Sequence record: KY608965.1
Direction: 5' to 3' (one strand)
From: Escherichia phage phiEC1
DNA: 64,000 nucleotides
Shown: one piece after another, positions 1-55,587 of the stretch
Layout of the letters: each line of letters opens with the position of its first letter
How positions within the stretch are numbered: position 1 is the first letter of the stretch
Made by a program: the position numbers and the translations under genes
The notes under the pieces: model-generated
Database searches by the model: none
What the model saw: the letters and a program-made list of their open reading frames with translations, nothing else
What the model was told of the DNA's origin: nothing

Positions 1-1084
1 TTGCTTTGCAATTAATAAGGTCGTTAACAGCGTCATCAACTTCTTTAATAGAAGAGATAGCACCTAGTTTATATTTAGTTTCAATTGCATCTCGGAAAGG
101 TTTGTGTTTAAACAAAGGTCCCCAGAATTCTACGCAATCAGTAGCTTTAGCACGCCATGATTTCTCTTCACGAATCATTTCGCCTGTTTCTTCGTCAAGG
201 AATTCGCGAGCATACCACCCGGCTTTAGGCTTAACTACAAAACCAATTTCAGTTGCCATTTCTAGCAAGCCACTGAATGGGTCGATACCGCCATCAAAAT
301 TAACTGTGATCGGGAAAGTAGATTTCTCTTTAACTGTACGAGATTTTTCTGCTTTCAACGTGAAGTCATAACCGGTCAATTCTGTACCTTCTTTAACCTG
401 ACGTTTAGAGATAAAGAATACAGTGTTAGCAGAGTAAAGAATACCTGTACCACCGCCCATAATCTCTTTAGGATATAGTCCGCCGATTTCCATTGCTGTA
501 TGGTTGATTGCAACACATGGAATATCTTTAATAGTCAGATACGGGGTTACAATACGGAAAAGAGATTTAAGTGCCTTAGCACGAGACATATCACCTACGA
601 CTTTCTCGTTCAATGCATCTTCGGTTTCTTTCTTAGATGCAGTATTACCGATTGAATCGATAAAGATAATAACTTTATCACCGCGTTCAATTGCATCAAG
701 CTGATTAGTCATATCAACTTTAAGTTGTTCGACGGACTGAATTGGTGTATGAACTACACGGTCTAAATCAACACCCATTGAACGGAAGTAAGATTCTGAA
801 GCACCGAATTCTGAGTCATAGAACAAACAGATTGCATCTTTATATTTCTTCATATACGCTGCAACCATAGTTAGTCCAAACAATGTTTTAAAATGTTTAG
901 AAGGTGCAGCAAAAATAGTCAAGCCTGATTGCAATCCTGCATTCAGAGCACCACCTAGTGCAATATTCAACATCGGAATACGAGTAGGGACTTCATCACG
1001 ATTATTAAACAGCTTAGACTTAGTCAAGTCTGCAGTCATTTTAGAAGTAGAAGCTTTAATCAGACGAGATTTTAAATCAGACAT
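1..1084 (-). CDS. uvsX: UvsX RecA-like recombinase, N-terminal part (gene runs off window start)
   Basis: Minus-strand ATG at 1082-1084 gives MSDLKSRLIKASTSKMTADLTK..., T4 UvsX-like N-terminus; synteny. Confidence 0.85.
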   Translation of the reverse strand, partial: MSDLKSRLIKASTSKMTADLTKSKLFNNRDEVPTRIPMLNIALGGALNAGLQSGLTIFAAPSKHFKTLFGLTMVAAYMKKYKDAICLFYDSEFGASESYFRSMGVDLDRVVHTPIQSVEQLKVDMTNQLDAIERGDKVIIFIDSIGNTASKKETEDALNEKVVGDMSRAKALKSLFRIVTPYLTIKDIPCVAINHTAMEIGGLYPKEIMGGGTGILYSANTVFFISKRQVKEGTELTGYDFTLKAEKSRTVKEKSTFPITVNFDGGIDPFSGLLEMATEIGFVVKPKAGWYAREFLDEETGEMIREEKSWRAKATDCVEFWGPLFKHKPFRDAIETKYKLGAISSIKEVDDAVNDLINCKA

Positions 1085-1183
1085 TGTATTTTTCCATAGG
1101 CATCATTATATTTTACTCATGTTTAAAAGATAAGATGATTATATACTAAGAGTTATACAGCATTTAAAACTTTAAACAGGCTC

Positions 1184-1732
1184 TTAACGAGCCCATTTGA
1201 TAATTTCTGTAATCAAATTATTACGTTCGCTTGCATTAAATCCTATAACTTTGTTAGCACCATCATGATTAAGTAATTGATACGTTTGGATTTTGTTATG
1301 AATTGCAAACTCTTCAAAATGTGAAATGACTGTATTAAAACCGAATGAAGACAAAGTAATAAGGTCGTCTTCAAAACTTTCAGTCATTTCATTACGTGTT
1401 AAAATAATTGTGAACACATCATGGTTTTGGCAAAGACGAACATAATCCTGTTCATAAACATCAAGAACCGAGTCCGCATCTTGTCGAATACGTCCATAAA
1501 CCCAGTTACTAATATATCCACGGTCTAACAGATAAATCTTAGTAGGGTCTAAATAATTCAACATCGTTTCGAAACAGCCAACTTCATTTCGAGACTTAAC
1601 ATCGAAACGTCCATCAACTGTTCGTTTAGGGAAATCAATCTTTACATATCTTTCACTAATTTCCATTATGTCATTAATGAAAGTTGTTTTACCGGCATTA
1701 TCCGGGCCGTCTACTAAAATAATTTTAGCCAT
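1184..1732 (-). CDS. P-loop small-molecule/nucleotide kinase-like protein
   Basis: 182 aa; Walker A ILVDGPDNAGKTT near N-terminus, shikimate/gluconate/dNMP-kinase-like size; function inferred. Confidence 0.55.
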   Translation of the reverse strand: MAKIILVDGPDNAGKTTFINDIMEISERYVKIDFPKRTVDGRFDVKSRNEVGCFETMLNYLDPTKIYLLDRGYISNWVYGRIRQDADSVLDVYEQDYVRLCQNHDVFTIILTRNEMTESFEDDLITLSSFGFNTVISHFEEFAIHNKIQTYQLLNHDGANKVIGFNASERNNLITEIIKWAR

Positions 1733-1733
1733 T

Positions 1734-2633
1734 TTATTCCTCGATTACGACATCTTCGTATTTAGGTATATTATACGGCGAAGAAATTAAAGCATTAAAG
1801 TAGATGAACTCACCAAGACCTGGATGGAATACTTCTTCAGGATTTTCGAAATATTGAATCTTCGGACGTCCTTTAAGAATTTGATAGTACTCAGTTTTAG
1901 TTGGATTAAAAATTCGAATCAGCGCTTCTTCAGGATACTTATTTCTGTCGAAGCTATTATTTGGATCGGTTATATAAAGCGGTTGACCTAATTGAATTGC
2001 GCATTCAACCACTTGTTCAAAACGATAACACGGGTCACTAATTCGAAATGGATGAAAAATACCATCTAGATGAATAGGAGCCAAATCACCTACAAGACGC
2101 TGCATGACGGAAGGACGTATAACTTTCTGCGTTACGATAATCTTATTACCATCGGCACCTGCGTTAACCAGCACTTCCTTTTGACGTTCATTCAACACAG
2201 TAGTTTGAAGTGAACGATTAACAGACAACATGTCGGTTTTTAAGAATTCATCAATATAAAAACGTGGTTTATTAGGGTCTGCAGTGATATTGAAATTGAA
2301 TTCTACGTCAAAAGCGCCATCATATCCAGTGATATCTGTGATTAGAAAATCACAATCATAATAAGCAATTAATGAATCAACCACAAATTCATTTTCAGAC
2401 CAAAAATATTTACGAGTGTTATATGCGTTATCTTTATACCATAATGGAACAAACTTAAATTCCGGGAAAAGACGTTCACATTCTTTAATATCAGATGCAT
2501 TACGTGGATATGTAATCACATCACCTGGATTAGCACGGTGCAAATGAAGTTGGAAGTTGCCATCCTTAAGGATAGCATACTGTCCAGTTTCATAAGACCG
2601 CATACTCAAGATAGGTACGCGGAAAATAGCCAT
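1734..2633 (-). CDS. hypothetical protein, candidate DNA sugar-transferase of the modification module
   Basis: 299-aa ORF, stop/start coupled to neighbours; no motif I can assign; role inferred from position only. Confidence 0.5.
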   Translation of the reverse strand: MAIFRVPILSMRSYETGQYAILKDGNFQLHLHRANPGDVITYPRNASDIKECERLFPEFKFVPLWYKDNAYNTRKYFWSENEFVVDSLIAYYDCDFLITDITGYDGAFDVEFNFNITADPNKPRFYIDEFLKTDMLSVNRSLQTTVLNERQKEVLVNAGADGNKIIVTQKVIRPSVMQRLVGDLAPIHLDGIFHPFRISDPCYRFEQVVECAIQLGQPLYITDPNNSFDRNKYPEEALIRIFNPTKTEYYQILKGRPKIQYFENPEEVFHPGLGEFIYFNALISSPYNIPKYEDVVIEE

Positions 2634-3349
2634 TAGTCAAGGAATCCTTTAACATAATCAAAATCACGTTCAAACACATGGGCACTTACCATGGTATGAG
2701 TATAATCACCAACTTCTACACCGCATTCGTTAGCGATATAATGAAGTAATTTTCCTTGGAGATAAAAATCCAACTGCATAACAACAGCACAGTTCTGAGA
2801 ACGCATATGGCAGTGGGTATAAAGCTTACCATCACGAATATAATAAGTCACTGAGTCAGTACATGGATATTCAAGTGTTTCGTCCGAATCAAGCAAAGCC
2901 TGATCAGAACTTTCTAGAATTTGGAACACAACTCTTCGAGAGTTAGGTTTCTCTTTAAGTTCTTTTAGAAGAGCTGGTAATTGGGCCACAATGCGAGGAC
3001 CATAGAAAGTGTTGAAGTTCGCAGGCAAAGCATCTGATTTTGGTTTAGAAATGAATTTAGCGACATTAGGATATGCCTTAAACGCTTCTTCTGCATCAGT
3101 ACCACCAGAAATCATAAACTTCCAGAAGTCTTCGGCATATTCATAAGAGATGCGGTTAATACGTGGGTCGGTCATTTTGAACGATGATGGATTGTCAACA
3201 ACTACTGTCATGGACCCGATTTCATTACAACGTCCAATACGAGAATCAGTTACGAATTCCGGGTTTTCTAAAATTTCACGATTGACTGCTTTAAATGCGG
3301 TTTGAAAATCTGCGGCTTTGATATATTTCATTGTGTTATGTTTTCCCAT
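2633..3349 (-). CDS. 42: deoxycytidylate hydroxymethylase-like (thymidylate synthase fold, gene 42 family)
   Basis: 238 aa; motifs KPNSRRVVFQ, YPCTDSVTYYIRDG, HMRSQN...QLDF, HVFERDF parallel T4 gp42 NPDSRRGIMIY, MCTNTVQYLIRD, NMRSND...RNDY, HVYSRHF; Asp at the pyrimidine-specificity position. Confidence 0.75.
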   Translation of the reverse strand: MGKHNTMKYIKAADFQTAFKAVNREILENPEFVTDSRIGRCNEIGSMTVVVDNPSSFKMTDPRINRISYEYAEDFWKFMISGGTDAEEAFKAYPNVAKFISKPKSDALPANFNTFYGPRIVAQLPALLKELKEKPNSRRVVFQILESSDQALLDSDETLEYPCTDSVTYYIRDGKLYTHCHMRSQNCAVVMQLDFYLQGKLLHYIANECGVEVGDYTHTMVSAHVFERDFDYVKGFLD

Positions 3350-3391
3350 GTTTACCTCAATACAATTTATTATATACTCAATTCATAAAGC

Positions 3392-3631
3392 TTATTTGAA
3401 TTTCTTGGCAATGTTGATATAACGTAAAGCTTCAGAATCTATACTTCCAAGAACACTATGAAGAAATGCATCAGCGTAGTATTCCAATTGAACAGGTTCT
3501 TTAATCACTTTAGCCGCTTTGGTTTCAAACAGGCCCATCAGGGCCTTTTTAAGAATTTGTTCATTAGTGTTCAGTTTTATAGTCAAAATCTCTTCATTAA
3601 GTTGGTGGTTAAAAGTTTTTCTAGAAATCAT
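3392..3631 (-). CDS. hypothetical small protein
   Basis: 79-aa ORF; start overlaps upstream stop (ATGA coupling). Confidence 0.45.
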   Translation of the reverse strand: MISRKTFNHQLNEEILTIKLNTNEQILKKALMGLFETKAAKVIKEPVQLEYYADAFLHSVLGSIDSEALRYINIAKKFK

Positions 3632-4797
3632 TCCGGGTACCTCAAAGCGTCATCAGAGTTAGTTATATCAATAATAGATATAGAGTTTTCTGATAACCCA
3701 TTTTTAGATAACTGACGTTTATAATATCTTTCACAATATGTACACGTCGTCCCGCAGATTTCATTAGCACAATCGAAATCTGGATGTCTGAACCACCTTT
3801 TTTCTAAAAAGCCATCTAACAAAGAGGTTTCAATATTTACTGTATGTGAAAACTCAGTTTCGTTTTCAAGAGTGAAAATAGTCTCTAAAGGCTTCCACAG
3901 TTCTAACAAATTACCTTCAAACTTTTCAGAAGCGTATGCTTCAAGAACTTTCAAAATGTAGTCTGTGCTACCTGTACGTCCTGAAACTTTGAATTGAGTG
4001 ATACCAATATCATTATAAAGTTTCAAATCTTGAGGACGAACAAAACGAGTTCTCAACCAGTTAAATGGGTCTGTATCACGAGCTTTAATACAGTGCTGCA
4101 TAGGATATCCGTTTAAGGATTTAGCATCATCAGCTGTAACATCAGTACTATGGAAAATATAGCAAGAGTCACGATAGCTACAATGTGTTGTATACCCTTT
4201 ACCAGCATTAGAACAGAACTCATTTACAAGAACTTCAAATATTATATTGTTCTTATTGCAAAACTCTGCTGCACGCTTCAGGAAAGAAACTGAACGGTTC
4301 TTATGAATTCCGCAACAGACTTTTTTGATGTTATATTGGTCGTGCAAGTATTTGATTTGAGTTACGGCATCAACATGTAGAATTGTTGAAACTTCAATCT
4401 CAATATCTTTATTGACTTCACGAACAATTTCCATAACAACAGGGTTAGCGATAGTAATACGCCATACGCCTATTGACCAAAGATACTGAACATAATCCTG
4501 AATAGCTTTCTTCTTCCACTCAACTAGTTCTCTTTTTGAACCAGGATTTATCGTGTTGAGTGTATAGTTAAAGCAAATACCTAATTCGTTACAACGTTTA
4601 ACGTAGTCTTCTAACATCTTTTTGTCAACGTCAGGAAGCCTAAAATCAGGTCTGGCTGCTACAAAAGCCATTTCTCTTGTAGAGCCATATACTTCGTTTA
4701 TCAAGCTATTAGGATAGGTTTTATTGAGCTCTACGATTTTATCAAGAAGAGCTAAATCAAAATTCGTTCCGATTTTAAAAGTATTCATTTTTTGCAT
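3628..4797 (-). CDS. cysteine-rich hypothetical enzyme (possible TIM-barrel/Fe-S protein)
   Basis: 389 aa; Cys cluster CCGIH...FC...CSNAGKGYTTHCSYRDSC and C-terminal CANEICGTTCTYCERYY; weak resemblance to U32-family proteins, not confirmed. Confidence 0.55.
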   Translation of the reverse strand: MQKMNTFKIGTNFDLALLDKIVELNKTYPNSLINEVYGSTREMAFVAARPDFRLPDVDKKMLEDYVKRCNELGICFNYTLNTINPGSKRELVEWKKKAIQDYVQYLWSIGVWRITIANPVVMEIVREVNKDIEIEVSTILHVDAVTQIKYLHDQYNIKKVCCGIHKNRSVSFLKRAAEFCNKNNIIFEVLVNEFCSNAGKGYTTHCSYRDSCYIFHSTDVTADDAKSLNGYPMQHCIKARDTDPFNWLRTRFVRPQDLKLYNDIGITQFKVSGRTGSTDYILKVLEAYASEKFEGNLLELWKPLETIFTLENETEFSHTVNIETSLLDGFLEKRWFRHPDFDCANEICGTTCTYCERYYKRQLSKNGLSENSISIIDITNSDDALRYPE

Positions 4798-4844
4798 CTC
4801 GCGTTAATTGATGCGATGGTTTTTTGCAGGTCTTACTTAAATTA

Positions 4845-5231
4845 TTATAGATTCGGTTTATATGATTTAAATGTTTCGAATTCGCCTTTATTCATAAGAG
4901 CTTTGAATTCGTCAGGACGCATAGCTTTGTCGTCGATAATCCAATCATATACTGGTTTATGTGTTAGCAAATTATGATACTTCAAACCAATGTTTTCCAA
5001 GTTCTGAATCAGACTTGGGAGAATGTCAATTGCTATACGTCCAGGACCTACTGACTTCATACCGCGTGCAGTATAAAGCGTTATAGTATGCCCTGCATCA
5101 TACAGGGCATTAATGGCGGTCACCATTTCGACGTCTGGTTTGAAGTTCACATAATCACGATTGTTATTCCACTCTGTTATACAATCATCGACATCAAAAC
5201 AAAGATTAAGCATGTTTTCTACACGGTGCAT
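4845..5231 (-). CDS. HAD-superfamily phosphatase
   Basis: Motif I FDVDDCIT, motif II ITLYTAR, motif III HKP, motif IV WIIDDK; ATG at 5229-5231 overlaps upstream TAA. Confidence 0.65.
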   Translation of the reverse strand: MHRVENMLNLCFDVDDCITEWNNNRDYVNFKPDVEMVTAINALYDAGHTITLYTARGMKSVGPGRIAIDILPSLIQNLENIGLKYHNLLTHKPVYDWIIDDKAMRPDEFKALMNKGEFETFKSYKPNL

Positions 5232-6916
5232 TAGATTCGTTCCCATTGATGAGTGATATCGCCACCGATTGGACGATAGGAAACACCAGTTTCTTTATCA
5301 GTTAGTACCCATTTACCAGGATTTTTTGTAATCAGAGTAGCCGTTACAGGTTCTGCTACGTCATAACTAATAGAGCCGTCTTGAAGTACACGGCCCATGT
5401 TACGTAATTGCTTAGTCAGAAGTTCCATACCTTTATAATATGCGGCAACCGCTTTAAGTGGATTATTCTTGAAATAACCACCTAATGCAATCCAAATAAT
5501 TGCTACAGCCAAATGATGATACTCGTTAAACGAACTCATCTTTCCATATTTGTAAACTAATGGATTGATGTTAATAGTCACATTACAAGTTGTTTCATCA
5601 ATAGTAAACTGTCCCCAGGTCGGATTAGCATTGAATTCATCATAACCTGAAACAGCATAAAGCACTTTAGCTTCATCATACAATTTTGGCCCGTAAATCT
5701 TGGTTTCACCAAAATATCCACGAGGGTCGATAAACTTGACTTCGCCGTTATCAGTAATCATAGTATTACTGAAGTTTGGGTCACCGTGAATAACAGAGTA
5801 CTGTCCCTGAGAACGGTTATGATAACGAATAAGATGTTCTAAAGCTTGTTTCAACATTGGCTTCAGACGTCCAATCTTAGTGTAGTTCACGTGTGTGATT
5901 TTACCAAATGAATCAATCAATGGCTGAATGCTTTCACAACGATCAATAACTTTCGTATAGAACTCTTTAGTGAAATCACGGCGAACAGTTTCAGGACTTA
6001 CAAAATAAGTGTCTGTGCTGAATTTCAGTGCATCTAAAATTGCATCAACAATTTGTGGACGAGCAAGACTTGATTTGGATTTAATATATTCAAATGCCGG
6101 CTTACCTTTAATACGTTCCATTTCAAAATTATTTTCATTTACCGAAACTAACTGAGGAACTGAATCTGATTTCACTTTCAAATACCATGAAATCTCATCT
6201 TTTTGAAGAGCTCGACCTTGTTCGGTTAACGCGAATTTAGTTACAGTTTCTTCGCCAATTTCAACTGCATTAAAACTACGATTAAGTTCACGAACTTCAT
6301 GAGCTTTTTCAAGTTTAGGCATATCACCTAAATCAATTAGATTCATAAGCTCTGATTTATTGAATGCACTGCCGTAAAGGAATTCTACGAAATCACGTCC
6401 TTTGCAGTATTCGTGAATTTCCTCGTCAGTAGAACCCATGTAGAATTCCCAGTCTTTGAACTGATAAATTCCTACAACATTACCGCCTGTTGAACCTACG
6501 TTAGTGATATTTTCACCATCGAAATTATATCGACATTCATCACCCTTAACATAGATTGCGTTAACATTCCAAGACCATGAACCAAAATCAGGAATAATAT
6601 CACACCAGTTAACAATTACATTATGGCCATCTAAATCTTTGTATAATTTAGCAAGAGCATAAGCAGAACCATACGCTTCATCAACTGTACGAATAGTCAC
6701 ATTGAACCCTTCTTGCTCACAATAAGCTCGAACAGTTTCAGCAAATTTTGAATGAACTACTACAATAATTTCATCTGCGCCAAGGTCAGAATAAATTGTA
6801 TACAAATTGCTCAGAATAGTGTCTTGCTTATAGTTCACAAGAACTTTTGGAATATGGTGAGTAATTGGATATAAACGAGTTGCCAATCCAGCACCAAGAA
6901 TAACAGCTTTTTTCAT
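5231..6916 (-). CDS. bifunctional sugar-1-phosphate nucleotidyltransferase / APH-like anomeric sugar kinase
   Basis: N-terminus VILGAGLATRLYPIT (RmlA/GlmU-type G-x-G-T-R-L-x-P-x-T); C-terminus VIHGDPNFSN...FIDPRGYFG (aminoglycoside/choline-kinase-type catalytic loop); SD GAGGA upstream. Confidence 0.8.
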   Translation of the reverse strand: MKKAVILGAGLATRLYPITHHIPKVLVNYKQDTILSNLYTIYSDLGADEIIVVVHSKFAETVRAYCEQEGFNVTIRTVDEAYGSAYALAKLYKDLDGHNVIVNWCDIIPDFGSWSWNVNAIYVKGDECRYNFDGENITNVGSTGGNVVGIYQFKDWEFYMGSTDEEIHEYCKGRDFVEFLYGSAFNKSELMNLIDLGDMPKLEKAHEVRELNRSFNAVEIGEETVTKFALTEQGRALQKDEISWYLKVKSDSVPQLVSVNENNFEMERIKGKPAFEYIKSKSSLARPQIVDAILDALKFSTDTYFVSPETVRRDFTKEFYTKVIDRCESIQPLIDSFGKITHVNYTKIGRLKPMLKQALEHLIRYHNRSQGQYSVIHGDPNFSNTMITDNGEVKFIDPRGYFGETKIYGPKLYDEAKVLYAVSGYDEFNANPTWGQFTIDETTCNVTININPLVYKYGKMSSFNEYHHLAVAIIWIALGGYFKNNPLKAVAAYYKGMELLTKQLRNMGRVLQDGSISYDVAEPVTATLITKNPGKWVLTDKETGVSYRPIGGDITHQWERI

Positions 6917-6957
6917 GTTGAAGTCCTCATTGGTAAGTAGGTGTATTGTACACTATT

Positions 6958-7101
6958 CTAGTTAAAGCATTCATACTTTGCTTGTAGTCCAATCATAATC
7001 CATCCAATTACAAGTGTTGGAATCATTACTGGAGCCGTTAAGCTCCAGTAGATAGTCATGACAAGCATCAATAGTAAAAGTCCTATTGTTATTGCTTTCA
7101 T
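6958..7101 (-). CDS. small hydrophobic protein (47 aa), not in ORF track
   Basis: MKAITIGLLLLMLVMTIYWSLTAPVMIPTLVIGWIMIGLQAKYECFN; ATG overlaps the SIS-gene TGA (ATGA). Confidence 0.35.
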   Translation of the reverse strand: MKAITIGLLLLMLVMTIYWSLTAPVMIPTLVIGWIMIGLQAKYECFN

Positions 7102-7733
7102 TGTTCGCCTCGTAACATGGCACCTAGTGCACCGCCTGGATGGAACTTAAGGAAGTCATTAGAGGTAAATCCACGTTCAGACGAAAGGTTGATAGCAAAC
7201 GTATCGATAAGCGCTAACAACAATGTAGTGGACATGGTCGGAGCCAGAGAATTCTCGTCAACCTCTACCGCGATACCGGTACAGAACGTATAATCAAAAA
7301 GAGCTTCGTATTCTTGCGGAATGTCAGGGTTACAATGTAACAGAATCTGTTTAACCTGAGGACGAATCATACGAAGATGTTTAGCAACACCTATCATTTC
7401 TTCAGTCTTACCAGAACGACTGATGTGAACTAATACATCATTGGGTGCAATAAATCCTGCATCCCCATGAGAATAATGCCCAGTGTTCAAGTACATACTC
7501 GGGATACCGAGTGAAGCAAAAGTCTCTGAAGCTTTAGTTGCGATATTAGCGTTCTTACCAACACCTGTAATAATTACACGACTTTCATAATTACTCAGTC
7601 CAGGGCGACGAAGAGTTTCAAGAATAACATTATATCGGGCAGAGTTTTGACTAATTACTTTAGCCATAGTGGCAAGAGATGAAGCTTGTTTTACGATTGC
7701 GTCAATAGCGATAGTGATTGGTGTAGTTTTCAT
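7098..7733 (-). CDS. SIS-domain sugar-phosphate isomerase, KdsD/GutQ-like arabinose-5-phosphate isomerase without CBS domains
   Basis: GVGKNANIATKASETFASLGIPS, HISRSGKTEE, LAPTMSTT, FHPGGALG match the KdsD SIS domain (GMGKSGHIG..., ISNSGES, LAPTSSTT, HPGGALG). Confidence 0.8.
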   Translation of the reverse strand: MKTTPITIAIDAIVKQASSLATMAKVISQNSARYNVILETLRRPGLSNYESRVIITGVGKNANIATKASETFASLGIPSMYLNTGHYSHGDAGFIAPNDVLVHISRSGKTEEMIGVAKHLRMIRPQVKQILLHCNPDIPQEYEALFDYTFCTGIAVEVDENSLAPTMSTTLLLALIDTFAINLSSERGFTSNDFLKFHPGGALGAMLRGEQ

Positions 7734-7773
7734 ATTTCTCTCATTTAATTAGTTGGCCGTCCTTGGCATTATA

Positions 7774-10485
7774 TCAAAAATCGAACATATCGAACAGAGA
7801 TGCTTTCTTCTCGTAATCGAGTTTCGCTGCTGATGTGAATCCTTCAAGTGGTTTAATAAATGTCTTCTCAAGGAGAACAGTGTAGTCCATCCAATGAAGT
7901 ACGTCGTCTTTAATTAAATCTGTGATTTCAGTACCAGAAGGCCATGCGATACATTTATCACCGAACGGGTTTCCATCACGTAAAGGCAGAACGTATACCT
8001 TTTCGCCTTCTACAACTTGTGGAGCATCAATATTACCTTTGATAGCCCGGTTATATGTCAGAATTCCACGAATATGGAACGGACATTTAGGACCAGGGAA
8101 TCCACCAACGTCATATTTAGCAATGTTATTCGCAGAAGATACCGACGCGATGCTAATATAATTCAATTGACGGAATTCTTTTTCAAACTCTTTAAAATAT
8201 TCTTGTAATGATTCTTCACCTTCTTGAAGCATACGACGAATACATTCTTTAAGAGCTTTCTGTACTGCTTTAGGGGTCGAAGATTTCTGAGTCTCTAGAC
8301 CCATGATTTTGAGTTTAGGCTCAGCGTAACGAGTACCTTCCATATCCCACACGTTTAATGCGTAACGTTTCTTACCAGTCCAGAATCCACCAATACCTTT
8401 AGAACCGAGCGGAGGACCAGCGATAGCTTCTCGGTCCATGAACATTAAGTGTTGTTTATTGTTCATGTATTCACACATTTCACGGAAACCTCTATCAATA
8501 GCTGGTTCCATACGTTCACGTGCAAACTTATCTAAGAAGTCTACCCAATGGTTGGTATCACGGAATTTAGATTCACCAACCTTATCAATAATTTTATCTG
8601 CAGATACATAAATGGAGTCTGTATCACCATATAGAACGAAAGCTTCACCTTCTGTACCACAAACTTCATTCAGATATTCATTAACTTTACGTTCAATCCA
8701 CTGTAAAGCCATTTGTCCAAATGTTGTGATTGCAGTAGCATTACGCAAATCATAATAACGGAACCAAACGTTGCCAAGTGCACCATAAAGTGAGTTGATA
8801 AGCAATTTACGGTTAATTTGTGCAGTCATACCTGCAACTTCAGTACGTTGAGCTCTAAACAACATTTCATTAAGAGATTTAGCAGACAACTTTTTAATCT
8901 TTTCTTTAATCTCGTCAGTGAAGTCGAAACGATAATCAACATCTAATGGTTCGTCAACAGAAAGATTAGGATTATGCAATGCCTCTTTAATTATTTCACC
9001 ATTACGTTGAGCCGCAAGCATGTAACCTTTATGTTCTTTACGTTGATTAAAGACCTTAGTGATTTCAGTTGGAACTACACCGTCACGGTCTTTATAATAC
9101 ATCATGCCGTTAGGAGAGCAACTGTACACATCTGAAGGACGTTCAGCGATTGCGTTAATATAATCATGCAGTGGAGCTACTTTAAACGTTCCTGCTATTG
9201 TTTCTGGGCTAATATTCACTTGGCGAATAATACTTGGATACAGAGATGTAAGGTCGAAACTCATTACATATTTGTATCGATTTGGAATAGGTTCCTTAAC
9301 AAAAGCGCCAGGATAAGGTTGAACCGGGTGAGAACGACCTTGTGGAATCACCTTGTTTTGTTCTTTAAGGCTATTAAAAATAATAGCATCCCATGTTTTA
9401 ATTGGGCTAAACACAGATTGAATCTGTATCTTAGCATAATAACCCATGTCCAAACTCAAGTTGATGAACTGACGCTTAGCATCAATTTGCAATACACGAT
9501 ACACGTCGATAATGTTATAAGAAATATATCGTTGGTGATTGCTTTCACGAAGCTTAGAAATAGGACCGTCATATTTCAGTTTACCGACATTCAATTCAAA
9601 TTCTGAAATGTAATCCAGAGAATACGACGGTTGATTGGTAAAAGAGAATTTTTTGTAAAGGTCAATGTAATCAAGAACAGAGATACCGAACAATGTAATG
9701 ATTTCACGAGAACCATACATGTTTTCGATAACTTTAACACGAGTTTTACGATGTGGTGATAAACGTTTCGCAGTAGATTCGCCAAAAATATTCTTGATTC
9801 GGTTATACACATATGGAATATCAAATGACTCAACGTTCCATCCAGTCAAAATGACAGGAGTTTTCTGTTGCCAGAAGTTGAGATATTCCATCAACAATTC
9901 TTTTTCGTTATCGAACGGCATATAAATGATTTTATCAATAATTTCGGATGGAACTTCATCACCACCTTGTTCTTGAAGCTTAGCTGCAATTTCGATAGAC
10001 CATTCTTCTACATTACCATATGGAGAATTCAATAGATCAAATACGTAGAACCTGTCGTCAATTGAGTCATAATGGGTGATAGCATCAATCGGATGTTTTG
10101 CTTGTGACGGCTCAGGAAACCCATCCGGAGATGTTACTTCGATGTCGAAGTTAGCCACACGAATTTTTGTATGGTCGTATTTGATTTCATAGTTATAAGT
10201 GTCAGACAAATACGCTAATTTGAAATCGTCCATGCCAAGTGCTTCAAGACCGATATCTTCCATGCGTTTAATCCATTGAGACGCATCACGCATATTAGCG
10301 AACAACTTACGAGTACACGGCTTACCGTAGATATCGAAATATTTCGTAGCTTGACTTTCCGGACAATGAGCAAACAGTGATGGTTTATATTCTACTTCAC
10401 GAGTACGTTCACGGCCATTAGAATCGATGTAACGTTCAAAAATTGAATCACCAATCTGTTCAACCGTTAAGTAAAATTCTTTCAT
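7774..10485 (-). CDS. 43: DNA polymerase (family B) gp43
   Basis: 903 aa; MKEFYLTVEQIGDSIFERYIDSNGRERTREVEYKPSLFAH...; exo and pol motifs (FDIEV, YGDTDS); T4 synteny. Confidence 0.97.
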   Translation of the reverse strand: MKEFYLTVEQIGDSIFERYIDSNGRERTREVEYKPSLFAHCPESQATKYFDIYGKPCTRKLFANMRDASQWIKRMEDIGLEALGMDDFKLAYLSDTYNYEIKYDHTKIRVANFDIEVTSPDGFPEPSQAKHPIDAITHYDSIDDRFYVFDLLNSPYGNVEEWSIEIAAKLQEQGGDEVPSEIIDKIIYMPFDNEKELLMEYLNFWQQKTPVILTGWNVESFDIPYVYNRIKNIFGESTAKRLSPHRKTRVKVIENMYGSREIITLFGISVLDYIDLYKKFSFTNQPSYSLDYISEFELNVGKLKYDGPISKLRESNHQRYISYNIIDVYRVLQIDAKRQFINLSLDMGYYAKIQIQSVFSPIKTWDAIIFNSLKEQNKVIPQGRSHPVQPYPGAFVKEPIPNRYKYVMSFDLTSLYPSIIRQVNISPETIAGTFKVAPLHDYINAIAERPSDVYSCSPNGMMYYKDRDGVVPTEITKVFNQRKEHKGYMLAAQRNGEIIKEALHNPNLSVDEPLDVDYRFDFTDEIKEKIKKLSAKSLNEMLFRAQRTEVAGMTAQINRKLLINSLYGALGNVWFRYYDLRNATAITTFGQMALQWIERKVNEYLNEVCGTEGEAFVLYGDTDSIYVSADKIIDKVGESKFRDTNHWVDFLDKFARERMEPAIDRGFREMCEYMNNKQHLMFMDREAIAGPPLGSKGIGGFWTGKKRYALNVWDMEGTRYAEPKLKIMGLETQKSSTPKAVQKALKECIRRMLQEGEESLQEYFKEFEKEFRQLNYISIASVSSANNIAKYDVGGFPGPKCPFHIRGILTYNRAIKGNIDAPQVVEGEKVYVLPLRDGNPFGDKCIAWPSGTEITDLIKDDVLHWMDYTVLLEKTFIKPLEGFTSAAKLDYEKKASLFDMFDF

Positions 10486-52134: not shown

Positions 52135-52211
<77 letters not shown>

Positions 52212-52217
52212 AATATA

Positions 52218-52291
52218 TGACCCAGACCAGATTCGAACTGGTAACCTTTCCCTTATGAGGGGACTGCTGCTAACCATTGAGCTACAGGGCC
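52218..52291 (-). tRNA. tRNA with CAT anticodon (Met or lysidine-type Ile)
   Basis: Hand-folded: T arm ACCAG-TTCGAAT-CTGGT, anticodon loop CTCATAA, D-loop with GG; one acceptor-stem mismatch; 74 nt. Confidence 0.65.
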
Positions 52292-54852: not shown

Positions 54853-55587
54853 TTACCTTAAGATTGTTTCAATTTTAGAATAAAGCTCTTCTAAAGAGCT
54901 GTCGTTTGTAATAACTAAATCGCCTTCTTCAATAGGCAACCCAGCTTCTGTAATATGTTTATCGGTGGATTCCGTACCAGAGCGAACCACATGAATAACT
55001 GTAGCACCCATCGCTCTAGCGGTTTCCATTTCATGGACTTGACGTGTATCGGTTACGACATAGTAATCGAAATCACTTCCAATATAATCCATATAGTTTA
55101 ATGCAAAAAGTTTAACCCAATACATACGGTCAAATAAATTAACGACAACATCCGTACCGAGGGCTTGCATAAGACGGCGGATTGACCATGTGTCGTTGAT
55201 ATTATTTATAGCTTCACGCAGGGCTTCATATGGTTTAATATCTAGATACGAATATCCACCTTCTAACGATGATAATACTTTAACATTATTAATTGGTAAA
55301 TATTGACTTTGCAAATAAATTAGCGCTTCTTCCAATAATTCAATAACATCCAACTTATTGAGATTTAATGGTGTTTCACGGTCATATCCAACGCCTTCAA
55401 AGTATTCATATTTCAACTCTGTGAATACATCAGGATTTTCAGCATGCCTACGTCCCCAGGCTATTGCTAGAGCGTCTTTAATCGGATATGCCAATTGATA
55501 TTTTACGGATTTAAAGTTTGAATTGATGTAATCAGCAGTGGTGTCTTTACCACTACGTTTGATGCCGCTTAAAAAGATTAGCTCCAT
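54853..55587 (-). CDS. 1: deoxynucleoside monophosphate kinase gp1
   Basis: MELIFLSGIKRSGKDTTADYI... matches T4 gp1. Confidence 0.92.
   Translation of the reverse strand: MELIFLSGIKRSGKDTTADYINSNFKSVKYQLAYPIKDALAIAWGRRHAENPDVFTELKYEYFEGVGYDRETPLNLNKLDVIELLEEALIYLQSQYLPINNVKVLSSLEGGYSYLDIKPYEALREAINNINDTWSIRRLMQALGTDVVVNLFDRMYWVKLFALNYMDYIGSDFDYYVVTDTRQVHEMETARAMGATVIHVVRSGTESTDKHITEAGLPIEEGDLVITNDSSLEELYSKIETILR

Follow-up and report, generated by a model that had tools for sequence, protein, structure and literature searches.

Escherichia phage phiEC1 (KY608965.1) encodes a protein with the fold of thymidylate synthase (TS), and its gene raises the question of which reaction that fold serves: methylation of dUMP, folate-dependent hydroxymethylation of dCMP as in phage T4, or some other chemistry at the pyrimidine C5. 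We addressed this in a 64,000-nucleotide stretch of phiEC1 DNA, referred to here as the window, in which the gene lies at 2633–3349. It very probably encodes a dCMP 5-hydroxylase (5-hydroxy-dCMP, or 5hodCMP, synthase) that would employ flavin and O2 instead of folate, an assignment transferred from proteins of 98–99% identity. This enzyme family has already been characterised and published (2025–2026), and for this gene we offer a correction, with no claim to discovery.

The gene and its active-site residues

The gene is a minus-strand open reading frame of 238 amino acids in the ORF list of the window, with its ATG at 3347–3349 and a TAA stop codon at 2633–2635. The product matches Pfam Thymidylat_synt (PF00303) with E=1.2e-15 and a score of 57.8 bits, above the cut-off of 24.3, although the match spans residues 120–235 only, and it matches PHROG 160, 'thymidylate synthase', at 2e-47; an AF2 model (pLDDT 88) has the TS fold. 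An earlier note on this DNA had recognised TS-fold motifs shared with T4 gp42, and the family matches, the model and the aligned catalytic Cys all bear this out.

Residue equivalences were taken from an alignment of the protein with E. coli ThyA (Ec) and T4 gp42 (Table 1). Over the N-terminal half the match to TS is poor, which makes A97 = Ec W80 and I100 = Ec W83 less sure pairings than those in the C-terminal part. The earlier note had placed an Asp, within the motif QLDF, at the specificity position and had proposed an alignment as a check; both the alignment and the codon agree that this residue is Asp194, not Asn. Asp194 is predicted to select cytosine, and the inference drawn in that note, that the substrate is dCMP rather than a uracil nucleotide, is further upheld by the 5-hydroxy-dCMP product and the dCMP complexes of the orthologs described below.

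The protein shares with E. coli ThyA the core fold and the catalytic Cys, Arg and Ser, and in its C-terminal 115 residues it is about 30% identical to ThyA, but it differs by N177D, D169N, L143E, G173V and W80A and lacks the approximately 40 C-terminal residues that close over folate in ThyA. The columns of the former folate pocket hold Asn186 for Ec D169, Val190 for G173, Ala97 for W80 and Phe226 for Y209. Searches of the window by tblastn, one using T4 gp42 and one using E. coli ThyA, matched at 2633–3349 only and found no second TS-fold gene (T4-type gp42 or td).

Table 1. Features of the phiEC1 window around and related to the predicted dCMP 5-hydroxylase gene
Feature	Coordinates	Strand	Basis
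Predicted dCMP 5-hydroxylase / 5hodCMP synthase, TS-fold, ortholog of RB69 gp48 and HY126 AfhB	2633–3349	-	ORF, identity, Pfam
Ribosome-binding site GAGG (Shine-Dalgarno)	3355–3358	-	5 nt 5' of ATG, read in sequence
Codon Cys163, catalytic nucleophile = Ec ThyA C146 = T4 gp42 C148	2861–2863 (aca)	-	Alignment; DNA codon check
Codon Asp194 (Q192-L193-D194-F195), pyrimidine-specificity residue = Ec N177 = T4 D179	2768–2770 (atc)	-	Alignment; DNA codon check
Codon Asn186 = Ec D169 = T4 D171, published D169N signature	2792–2794 (gtt)	-	Alignment; DNA codon check
Codon Glu160 = Ec L143 = T4 D145, acidic residue, active-site mouth	2870–2872 (ttc)	-	Alignment; DNA codon check
182-aa P-loop nucleotide kinase, thymidylate-kinase-like (RB69 gp45)	1184–1732	-	PHROG 761 at 2e-45; PMC13326640 Table 1
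299-aa putative DNA arabinosyltransferase 1 (RB69 gp46:47 as one ORF)	1734–2633	-	PHROG 3891; predicted in PMC13326640 Table 1
79-aa ORF (RB69 gp49)	3392–3631	-	Mosigvirus only; slot of chorismate mutase in related phages
389-aa putative Peptidase_U32-family protein (RB69 gp50)	3628–4797	-	Pfam U32 7.4e-11; weak UbiU match
133-aa HAD-like phosphatase (RB69 gp51 / HY126 AfhF analog)	4845–5246	-	PHROG 1238; PMC13326640
561-aa bifunctional sugar kinase / NDP-sugar pyrophosphorylase (RB69 gp52:53 as one ORF; HY126 AfhE analog)	5231–6916	-	Pfam NTP_transferase and kinase-like matches; PDB 1jyk; PMC13326640
211-aa SIS-domain arabinose-5-phosphate isomerase (RB69 gp55)	7098–7733	-	Pfam SIS; PHROG 5670 at 5e-116
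244-aa dNMP kinase (T4 gp1 / RB69 gp159 homolog)	54853–55587	-	PDB 1dek, E=6e-91

Orthologs of established activity

The hydroxylase assignment is made because the protein is identical in 236 of 238 residues (99%) to RB69 gp48 (RB69ORF048c, NP_861738.1), the product of which is 5-hydroxy-dCMP. The two are alike in gene neighbourhood and in E160, C163, N186 and D194, and differ by N53T and V121A, neither of which is at an active-site position. RB69 gp48 is a characterised 5hodCMP synthase (Lee et al., NAR 2026, PMC13326640): when it is expressed together with the RB69 dNMP kinase, E. coli DNA comes to contain 5hodC, whose added oxygen derives from 18O2 in these in vivo assays, and the purified protein is yellow, with a bound flavin that is FMN-like by its spectra. 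DLP3 gp80 is a further member of this enzyme class. RB69 DNA carries Araf-Araf-5-hydroxy-dC as determined by MS and NMR, with a base fragment at m/z 128.05 in MS, not the 142.06 expected for hmC, and with the arabinose ether-linked directly to the C5-OH by NMR. The earlier note had also predicted hmC as the base that is then sugar-modified; the sugar modification stands, but these RB69 data make the modified base 5-hydroxycytosine.

The phage HY126 protein AfhB, as deposited in PDB entries 9iqc, 9ir2 and 9iqu (He et al., Nat Chem Biol 2026), is identical in 233 of 238 residues (~98%), with five conservative substitutions (T17S, E31Q, N53T, E87K and V121A), none of them at a catalytic position. 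The AF2 model of the phiEC1 protein superposes on the HY126 AfhB structures with TM 0.94–0.96 and rmsd 1.2–1.5 Å, and the top Foldseek matches are 9iqc (TM 0.94), titled 'Monooxygenase dependent on riboflavin with dCMP and FAD', and 9iqu, titled 'phage HY126 dCMP hydroxylase-AfhB with substrate dCMP'. According to the PDB titles the ligands in these crystals are dCMP and FAD. Naming of the flavin differs between the sources, being FMN-like for RB69 gp48 (PMC13326640) and FAD or riboflavin in the PDB titles.

Judged from these orthologs, the phiEC1 protein can be predicted with considerable assurance to bind flavin and to use O2 in forming 5-hydroxy-dCMP. It also has the features of this enzyme class, namely the TS fold, the catalytic Cys, D169N, Asp at the N177 position and Glu at the L143 position, together with nearby genes for NDP-sugar synthesis and a DNA glycosyltransferase on the same strand.

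Folate-dependent alternatives

T4 gp42 (EC 2.1.2.8; PDB 1b5e family) also acts on dCMP, in the first step of a glycosylated-cytosine pathway, and the phiEC1 protein could be imagined as its ortholog, a folate-dependent dCMP hydroxymethylase whose 5-hydroxymethyl-dCMP product is subsequently arabinosylated. Both have the TS fold and the catalytic Cys, Asp where ThyA has N177 and an acidic residue where ThyA has L143; the gene sits at the gene-42 position, between DNA polymerase and a DNA glycosyltransferase, many GenBank records carry the label 'dCMP hydroxymethylase', and RB69 was itself described with arabinosyl-hmC (Thomas et al. 2018, PMC6024577). Identity to T4 gp42, however, is only 25% over 218 aa (pairwise E=7e-13), which is far above chance and agrees with the substantial divergence remarked upon in the earlier note, but is no closer than that to MilA or TS; among the best 60 of 127 PDB sequence matches there are TS and MilA entries but no gp42 structures. 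MilA, the CMP 5-hydroxymethylase of mildiomycin biosynthesis (PDB 5jnh and 5b6d), has the closest non-orthologous solved fold (TMq 0.81–0.83, 25% identity) and likewise acts on a cytosine nucleotide, but it differs in catalysing folate-dependent hydroxymethylation, in using a ribonucleotide substrate and in having a chain about 80 residues longer. The folate pocket is not kept either: T4 gp42, which transfers a carbon, retains D171, G175 and W82 for CH2-THF, whereas the hydroxylase orthologs use flavin and transfer an oxygen atom from O2, and in the phiEC1 protein the pterin-binding D171 (Ec D169) is replaced by Asn186, G175 (Ec G173) by Val190 and W82 (Ec W80) by Ala97. In parallel assays RB69 gp48 yields 5hodC and T4 gp42 yields 5hmdC (PMC13326640), and both the flavin named in the titles of the ortholog crystal structures and the RB69 mass and NMR data speak against a hydroxymethyl group. 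The hydroxymethylase reading is already refuted for the orthologs, and it is very unlikely to hold for phiEC1. It fails in a direction that the earlier note did not foresee: that note allowed for methylation of dUMP or an Asn at the specificity site, but what separates RB69 gp48 and HY126 AfhB from a dCMP hydroxymethylase is that they make 5-hydroxy-dCMP with O2 and flavin, not methylene-THF, and the residue at Ec D169 is Asn.

A true thymidylate synthase converting dUMP to dTMP, as the gene is labelled in many related genomes, has an even slighter chance of being correct, to the point of being negligible. It is favoured by the Pfam and PHROG family names and by 'thymidylate synthase' labels in GenBank and on PDB chains, yet Asp194 rather than Asn occupies the specificity position, Ec D169, G173, W80 and L143 are all substituted, and the product of the orthologs is 5hodC (PMC13326640). 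The NCBIfam TS equivalog models all score far below their cut-offs, the best reaching 72.2 bits against 174.55 and the others 17–51 bits against cut-offs of 108–427.

Signature residues among the homologs

Database searches with the 238-residue protein returned 383 homologs, and 2816 cluster representatives at E<=0.001. Cys163 and Asn186 do not vary across 52 homologs, which extend to 53% identity, and Asp194 and Glu160 are invariant among the close homologs. Among 139 representatives of clusters at 50% identity, essentially all have Asp at the Asp194 position, and Asn at the 186 position is the commonest signature (68 of 139). The equivalent of Ec D169 is thus Asn in the 52 homologs and Asp in T4 gp42 and ThyA, and D169N has been proposed as a diagnostic signature of 5hodCMP synthases (PMC13326640). 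We find in addition that the Ec G173 column changes along with D169N: it is Gly in 39 of 39 representatives with Asp at position 186, and for the Asn-186 clade the four residues that head the listing are Val, Thr, Ile and Leu. We infer that the Ec D169 position, together with G173, separates folate-dependent carbon transfer from flavin- and O2-dependent oxygen transfer, with Asn186 presumably playing the corresponding role in the hydroxylases. Flavin reductase fusions, which would be an independent sign of flavin use, were sought among the long homologs; none was seen, and the only fusions were to His_Phos_1 and MazG.

Gene neighbourhood

The window is a Mosigvirus segment with RB69-like T-even synteny and contains a full arabinosyl-5-hydroxycytosine cluster around 2633–3349. 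Genes for an arabinose-5-phosphate isomerase (API), a kinase/pyrophosphorylase, a HAD phosphatase and a glycosyltransferase share its strand and are no more than 5 kb away (Table 1), and the ATG of the putative arabinosyltransferase gene overlaps the stop codon of the hydroxylase gene (TAATG). The role of the HAD-like phosphatase is the conversion of Araf-1,5-P2 to Araf-1-P, and RB69 gp159, the homolog of the more distant dNMP kinase, is active on 5hodCMP (both PMC13326640). In the RB69 reference, genes 46/47 and 52/53 are split, whereas each pair forms one intact ORF in the window. A search with the glycosyltransferase gave no match to PDB sequences, and a scan of 1000–8000 for promoters and terminators gave matches no more numerous than in shuffled sequence.

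The 79-aa ORF was considered as a diverged chorismate mutase, but this is unsupported: Pfam gives nothing at E<=10, BLASTP against two phage chorismate mutases is not significant, profile-profile comparison with chorismate mutase by hhalign gives a probability of 0.15%, and the AF2 model of this ORF (pLDDT 61) is too poor for a fold search.

A possible oxygen-independent route

The hydroxylase could conceivably be the aerobic half of a dual system in which the neighbouring U32 protein is a prephenate-dependent, O2-independent C5-hydroxylase that takes its oxygen from prephenate, although we regard this as doubtful. The U32 gene, present in 221 phage records, lies two genes upstream of the hydroxylase gene, and at least 54 related phages have a gene for a chorismate mutase, verified by Pfam, between the two. 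The bacterial U32 proteins RlhA, TrhP and UbiU/V are prephenate-dependent, O2-independent hydroxylases, RlhA forming 5-hydroxycytidine (PMC5727448, PMC6599085, PMC10990095), and all of the phages of Acinetobacter, a strict aerobe, that carry the hydroxylase lack the U32 gene. A strict link of U32 presence to facultatively anaerobic hosts is nonetheless broken by the E. coli Dhakavirus JS10, which also lacks it, and the ORF in the chorismate mutase slot of phiEC1 is without chorismate mutase similarity. The relationship of the phage U32 protein to RlhA, TrhP, UbiU and UbiV is no more than remote, with no significant pairwise BLAST match and with the Fe-S cysteines only partly conserved in a MAFFT alignment, and the comparison yields no assignment to any one of these; it also had no match among PDB sequences. 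It has been guessed to be a 'sugar or heterocycle reductase' (PMC13326640), and no open-access paper was found that proposes a U32/prephenate route in phages. Were the dual system to exist, which is not the likelier outcome, it would by analogy parallel the bacterial TrhO/TrhP routes to ho5U and the RlhA synthesis of ho5C, and the U32 route would keep 5-hydroxycytosine synthesis running in the anoxic gut, with the TS-fold enzyme dispensable under anoxia.

Proposed reaction and pathway

For the dCMP 5-hydroxylase itself, we propose that dCMP binds as dUMP does in TS, held by S184 and by the conserved arginines R138, R139 and R183 that bind the phosphate, and that Asp194 reads the cytosine N3/N4, a binding mode modelled on TS, gp42 and the dCMP complexes 9iqc and 9iqu. 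By the chemistry of the TS family, Cys163 would then add to C6 and render C5 nucleophilic. In TS the target of this carbon is the methylene of CH2-THF; in the hydroxylase it would instead be an electrophilic oxygen supplied by reduced flavin and O2, presumably as a flavin C4a-hydroperoxide lodged in what was the folate pocket. This peroxyflavin is our conjecture, while the origin of the oxygen in O2 and flavin binding have been established experimentally for the orthologs. 5hodCMP would be released once C5 has lost its proton and Cys163 has been eliminated. The phage dNMP kinase, followed by a host NDP kinase, would convert this to 5hodCTP for incorporation by the phage polymerase; the isomerase, kinase/pyrophosphorylase and phosphatase encoded next door would make UDP-Araf, from which the adjoining glycosyltransferase would move the arabinofuranosyl group onto DNA. 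The end product would be restriction-resistant arabinosyl-5-hydroxycytosine DNA.

Implications

The Asp at the specificity site, taken alone, leads to the right substrate but to the wrong chemistry. Hundreds of Straboviridae genomes still carry an outdated name for it, 'thymidylate synthase' or 'dCMP hydroxymethylase', at this gene. The enzyme family, as already published (2025–2026), presents a striking switch of cofactor on a conserved fold. The DNA of such phages would contain arabinosyl-5-hydroxycytosine, not arabinosyl-hmC, and the identity of the base bears on how sensitive they are predicted to be to restriction enzymes, type IV systems, DNA glycosylases or CRISPR, and through this on which phages are chosen for therapy.

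Genomic setting

Many Mosigvirus (RB69-like T-even) genomes match the window DNA at 97–98% identity, and the uvsX-to-gene 43 interval of the window has the same gene order as RB69. Transcription runs from the DNA polymerase gene through those for a SIS-domain arabinose-5-phosphate isomerase, a 561-aa kinase/nucleotidyltransferase, a HAD phosphatase, a U32-family protein and a 79-aa ORF to a gene of the thymidylate synthase (TS) fold, and on to a 299-aa glycosyltransferase and a 182-aa P-loop kinase. The TS-fold gene occupies the position of gene 42 in T4, its TAA shares one base with the ATG of the next gene (TAATG, 2631–2635), and no second TS-fold gene is present in the 64-kb window.

Features of the window discussed in the text
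Feature	Coordinates	Strand	Remarks
Glycosyltransferase, 299 aa	1734-2633	minus	L004:3598-4498 (comparison locus)
TS-fold ORF, 238 aa	2633..3349	minus	ORF call
GAGG ribosome-binding site of TS-fold gene	3355-3358	minus	5 nt before ATG, direct reading
79-aa ORF (RB69 gp49, PHROG 8601)	3392-3631	minus	Start overlaps U32 stop codon
U32-peptidase-family gene	3628-4797	minus	Two genes upstream of hydroxylase; Pfam 7.4e-11; comparison locus L005:4492-6002
Kinase/pyrophosphorylase, 561 aa	5231-6916	minus	L004:7095-8781 (comparison locus)
50-aa ORF	6971-7123	minus	No Pfam match; between isomerase and kinase/pyrophosphorylase
tRNA-Arg(TCT) and tRNA-Met(CAT), adjacent	52135-52291	minus	Sole Rfam or ARAGORN matches in window
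dNMP kinase	54853-55587		T4 gp1 structure 1dek, E=6e-91

The glycosyltransferase and the kinase/pyrophosphorylase are each one intact ORF and are split in the RB69 reference (gp46/47 and gp52/53); this fits a published comment attributing the RB69 splits to sequencing errors. Small ORFs are also annotated in the interval of the 50-aa ORF in RB69 (gp54), Bas46 and Serratia phage LC53, the last as 'transmembrane segment(s)'.

Assignment of the TS-fold protein

The earlier note had described a dCMP hydroxymethylase strongly diverged from T4 gp42, with Asp at the pyrimidine-specificity site. The fold is borne out by Pfam Thymidylat_synt (E=1.2e-15; 57.8 bits, cut-off 24.3; residues 120–235 only), by PHROG 160 'thymidylate synthase' (2e-47) and by alignment with E. 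coli ThyA, T4 gp42 and RB69 gp48; the NCBIfam thymidylate-synthase equivalog models all score far below cut-off. Because Asp194 (QLDF) aligns with ThyA N177 and gp42 D179, and identity with gp42 is 25% over 218 residues, the Asp and the divergence are likewise confirmed. Other equivalences (ThyA, then gp42) are Cys163 (C146, C148), Glu160 (L143, D145), Arg183/Ser184 (R166/S167, R168/S169), Asn186 (D169, D171), Val190 (G173, G175) and Ala97 (W80, W82), with Phe226 matching ThyA Y209. In TS, D169, G173, W80 and Y209 lie at or within 6 Å of the folate/C5 site (published 6-Å list, PMC13326640).

The hydroxymethylase identity does not hold, however, as these folate-pocket residues are changed and RB69 gp48, identical at 236 of 238 positions, makes 5-hydroxy-dC. 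Together with their own dNMP kinases, gp48 and gp80 of Acinetobacter phage DLP3 yield 5-hydroxy-dC in E. coli DNA, the oxygen coming from 18O2, and T4 gp42 in the same assay yields the hydroxymethyl form (5hmdC) instead (Lee et al., NAR 2026, PMC13326640). The purified 5-hydroxy-dCMP (5hodCMP) synthases have a yellow colour, and the flavin they release is FMN-like (PMC13326640); a crystal structure of the HY126 enzyme with flavin, and in vitro reconstitution with O2, are cited there from He et al. (Nat Chem Biol 2026). The prediction that hmC is the base that carries the sugar is likewise not supported: RB69 virion DNA shows its base fragment at m/z 128.05, where hmC would give 142.06, and bears beta-Araf-(1-3)-alpha-Araf on the C5-OH via an ether bond (PMC13326640).

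The best Foldseek matches of the AF2 model (pLDDT 88) are 9iqc, 'Monooxygenase dependent on riboflavin with dCMP and FAD' (TM 0.94), and 9iqu, 'phage HY126 dCMP hydroxylase-AfhB with substrate dCMP'; MilA follows at 25% identity. PDB chains 9iqc/9ir2 differ from our protein at five positions, none catalytic. Since its folate-pocket residues differ and its similarity to gp42 is below that of an ortholog, the protein is, as judged from sequence, outside the gp42 hydroxymethylase family; and since it has every sequence-testable feature of the dCMP 5-hydroxylase (AfhB/gp48) family, we assign it to the latter. This enzyme was already known (PDB release July 2025, bioRxiv 2025, NAR and Nat Chem Biol 2026), and the earlier interpretation matches what was believed before 2025 (Thomas et al. 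2018, PMC6024577), as well as outdated GenBank labels. In GenBank match records H1–H75, proteins at least 97% identical to this one are named 'thymidylate synthase', 'dTMP synthase', 'dCMP hydroxymethylase', 'deoxycytidylate 5-hydroxymethyltransferase' or 'hypothetical protein', and none is named a hydroxylase.

Proposed mechanism and a possible anaerobic route

Drawing on established TS chemistry, published ortholog data and our own inference, we propose that the protein would work like TS and gp42 up to C5 activation. The conserved Arg/Ser phosphate cradle would bind dCMP, which Asp194 would read, and Cys163 would attack C6; the activated C5 would then attack oxygen from reduced flavin and O2, presumably as a C4a-hydroperoxyflavin in the remodelled folate pocket. 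Deprotonation and Cys elimination would free 5hodCMP, which the dNMP kinase of the window and host NDK would convert to 5hodCTP, the form that the phage polymerase would incorporate, and UDP-Araf from the neighbouring genes would serve for arabinosylation.

The U32-family protein might provide a second, O2-independent route to 5-hydroxycytosine, although we think this rather unlikely. The idea arises because the bacterial U32 proteins RlhA (ho5C2501 in rRNA), TrhP and UbiU/V are prephenate-dependent, O2-independent hydroxylases, chorismate mutase being the enzyme that makes prephenate (PMC5727448, PMC6599085, PMC10990095), and because a Pfam-verified chorismate mutase (LC53-type ORF against CM_2, 1.7e-11, above cut-off) separates the U32 gene from that of the hydroxylase in LC53 and 53 other phage records. 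However, the phage protein is only a distant relative of the U32 proteins of E. coli, the E. coli phage Dhakavirus JS10 does without the U32 gene, and the 79-aa ORF that fills the chorismate mutase slot in phiEC1 has no similarity to that enzyme by BLASTP or hhalign. This ORF has 32 matches, all close relatives and only Mosigvirus-like sequences, and its AF2 model is helical and of low confidence (pLDDT 61).

The U32-family gene, whose product has a weak match to UbiU, is found in 221 phage records, with at least 80% identity in each; their hosts, as listed, are Enterobacterales and Shewanella, with no Acinetobacter phage among the matches listed. The TS-fold protein is matched in 92 Acinetobacter phage records, in Acinetobacter phage Lazarus the hydroxylase cluster is present and a U32 gene absent, and the DLP3 genes in Table 1 of PMC13326640 include no U32 homolog.

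Residue signatures and domain fusions in the family

Residues E160, C163, R183, S184, N186, D194 and H224 are invariant in 52 homologs with identities down to 53%. A full HMMER search through 1.84 billion cluster representatives found 2816 matches, and among the best 139 full-length representatives of these the residues at 160/163/186/194 are E-C-N-D in 68, D-C-D-D (hydroxymethylase-like) in 39, E-C-S-D in 12, and E-C-C-D and E-C-D-D in five each; the earliest D-C-D-D protein ranks 64. The diagnostic signature put forward for 5hodCMP synthases is D169N, validated in nine further diverse homologs (PMC13326640). The ThyA G173 column (residue 190) co-varies with it, a second such position found here, being Gly in all 39 D-C-D-D representatives and most commonly Val, Thr, Ile or Leu in the E-C-N-D group, and may be a second diagnostic position. 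At Y209 the same 39 all have Tyr, and the E-C-N-D group mostly Phe, Tyr or Leu. Signatures related to E-C-N-D combine Glu at L143 with a D169 residue that is Ser in 12 cases, Cys in five, His in two and Asp in five (alignment of representatives P0121–P0270).

Fusions occur among metagenomic TS homologs of the hydroxylase type: four clusters have a C-terminal His_Phos_1 (histidine-phosphatase) domain and one has a MazG nucleotide pyrophosphohydrolase domain (fusion-bearing representatives P0124, P0126, P0127, P0131 and P0162). In the MazG fusion, the supply of dCMP from dCTP would be coupled with hydroxylation.
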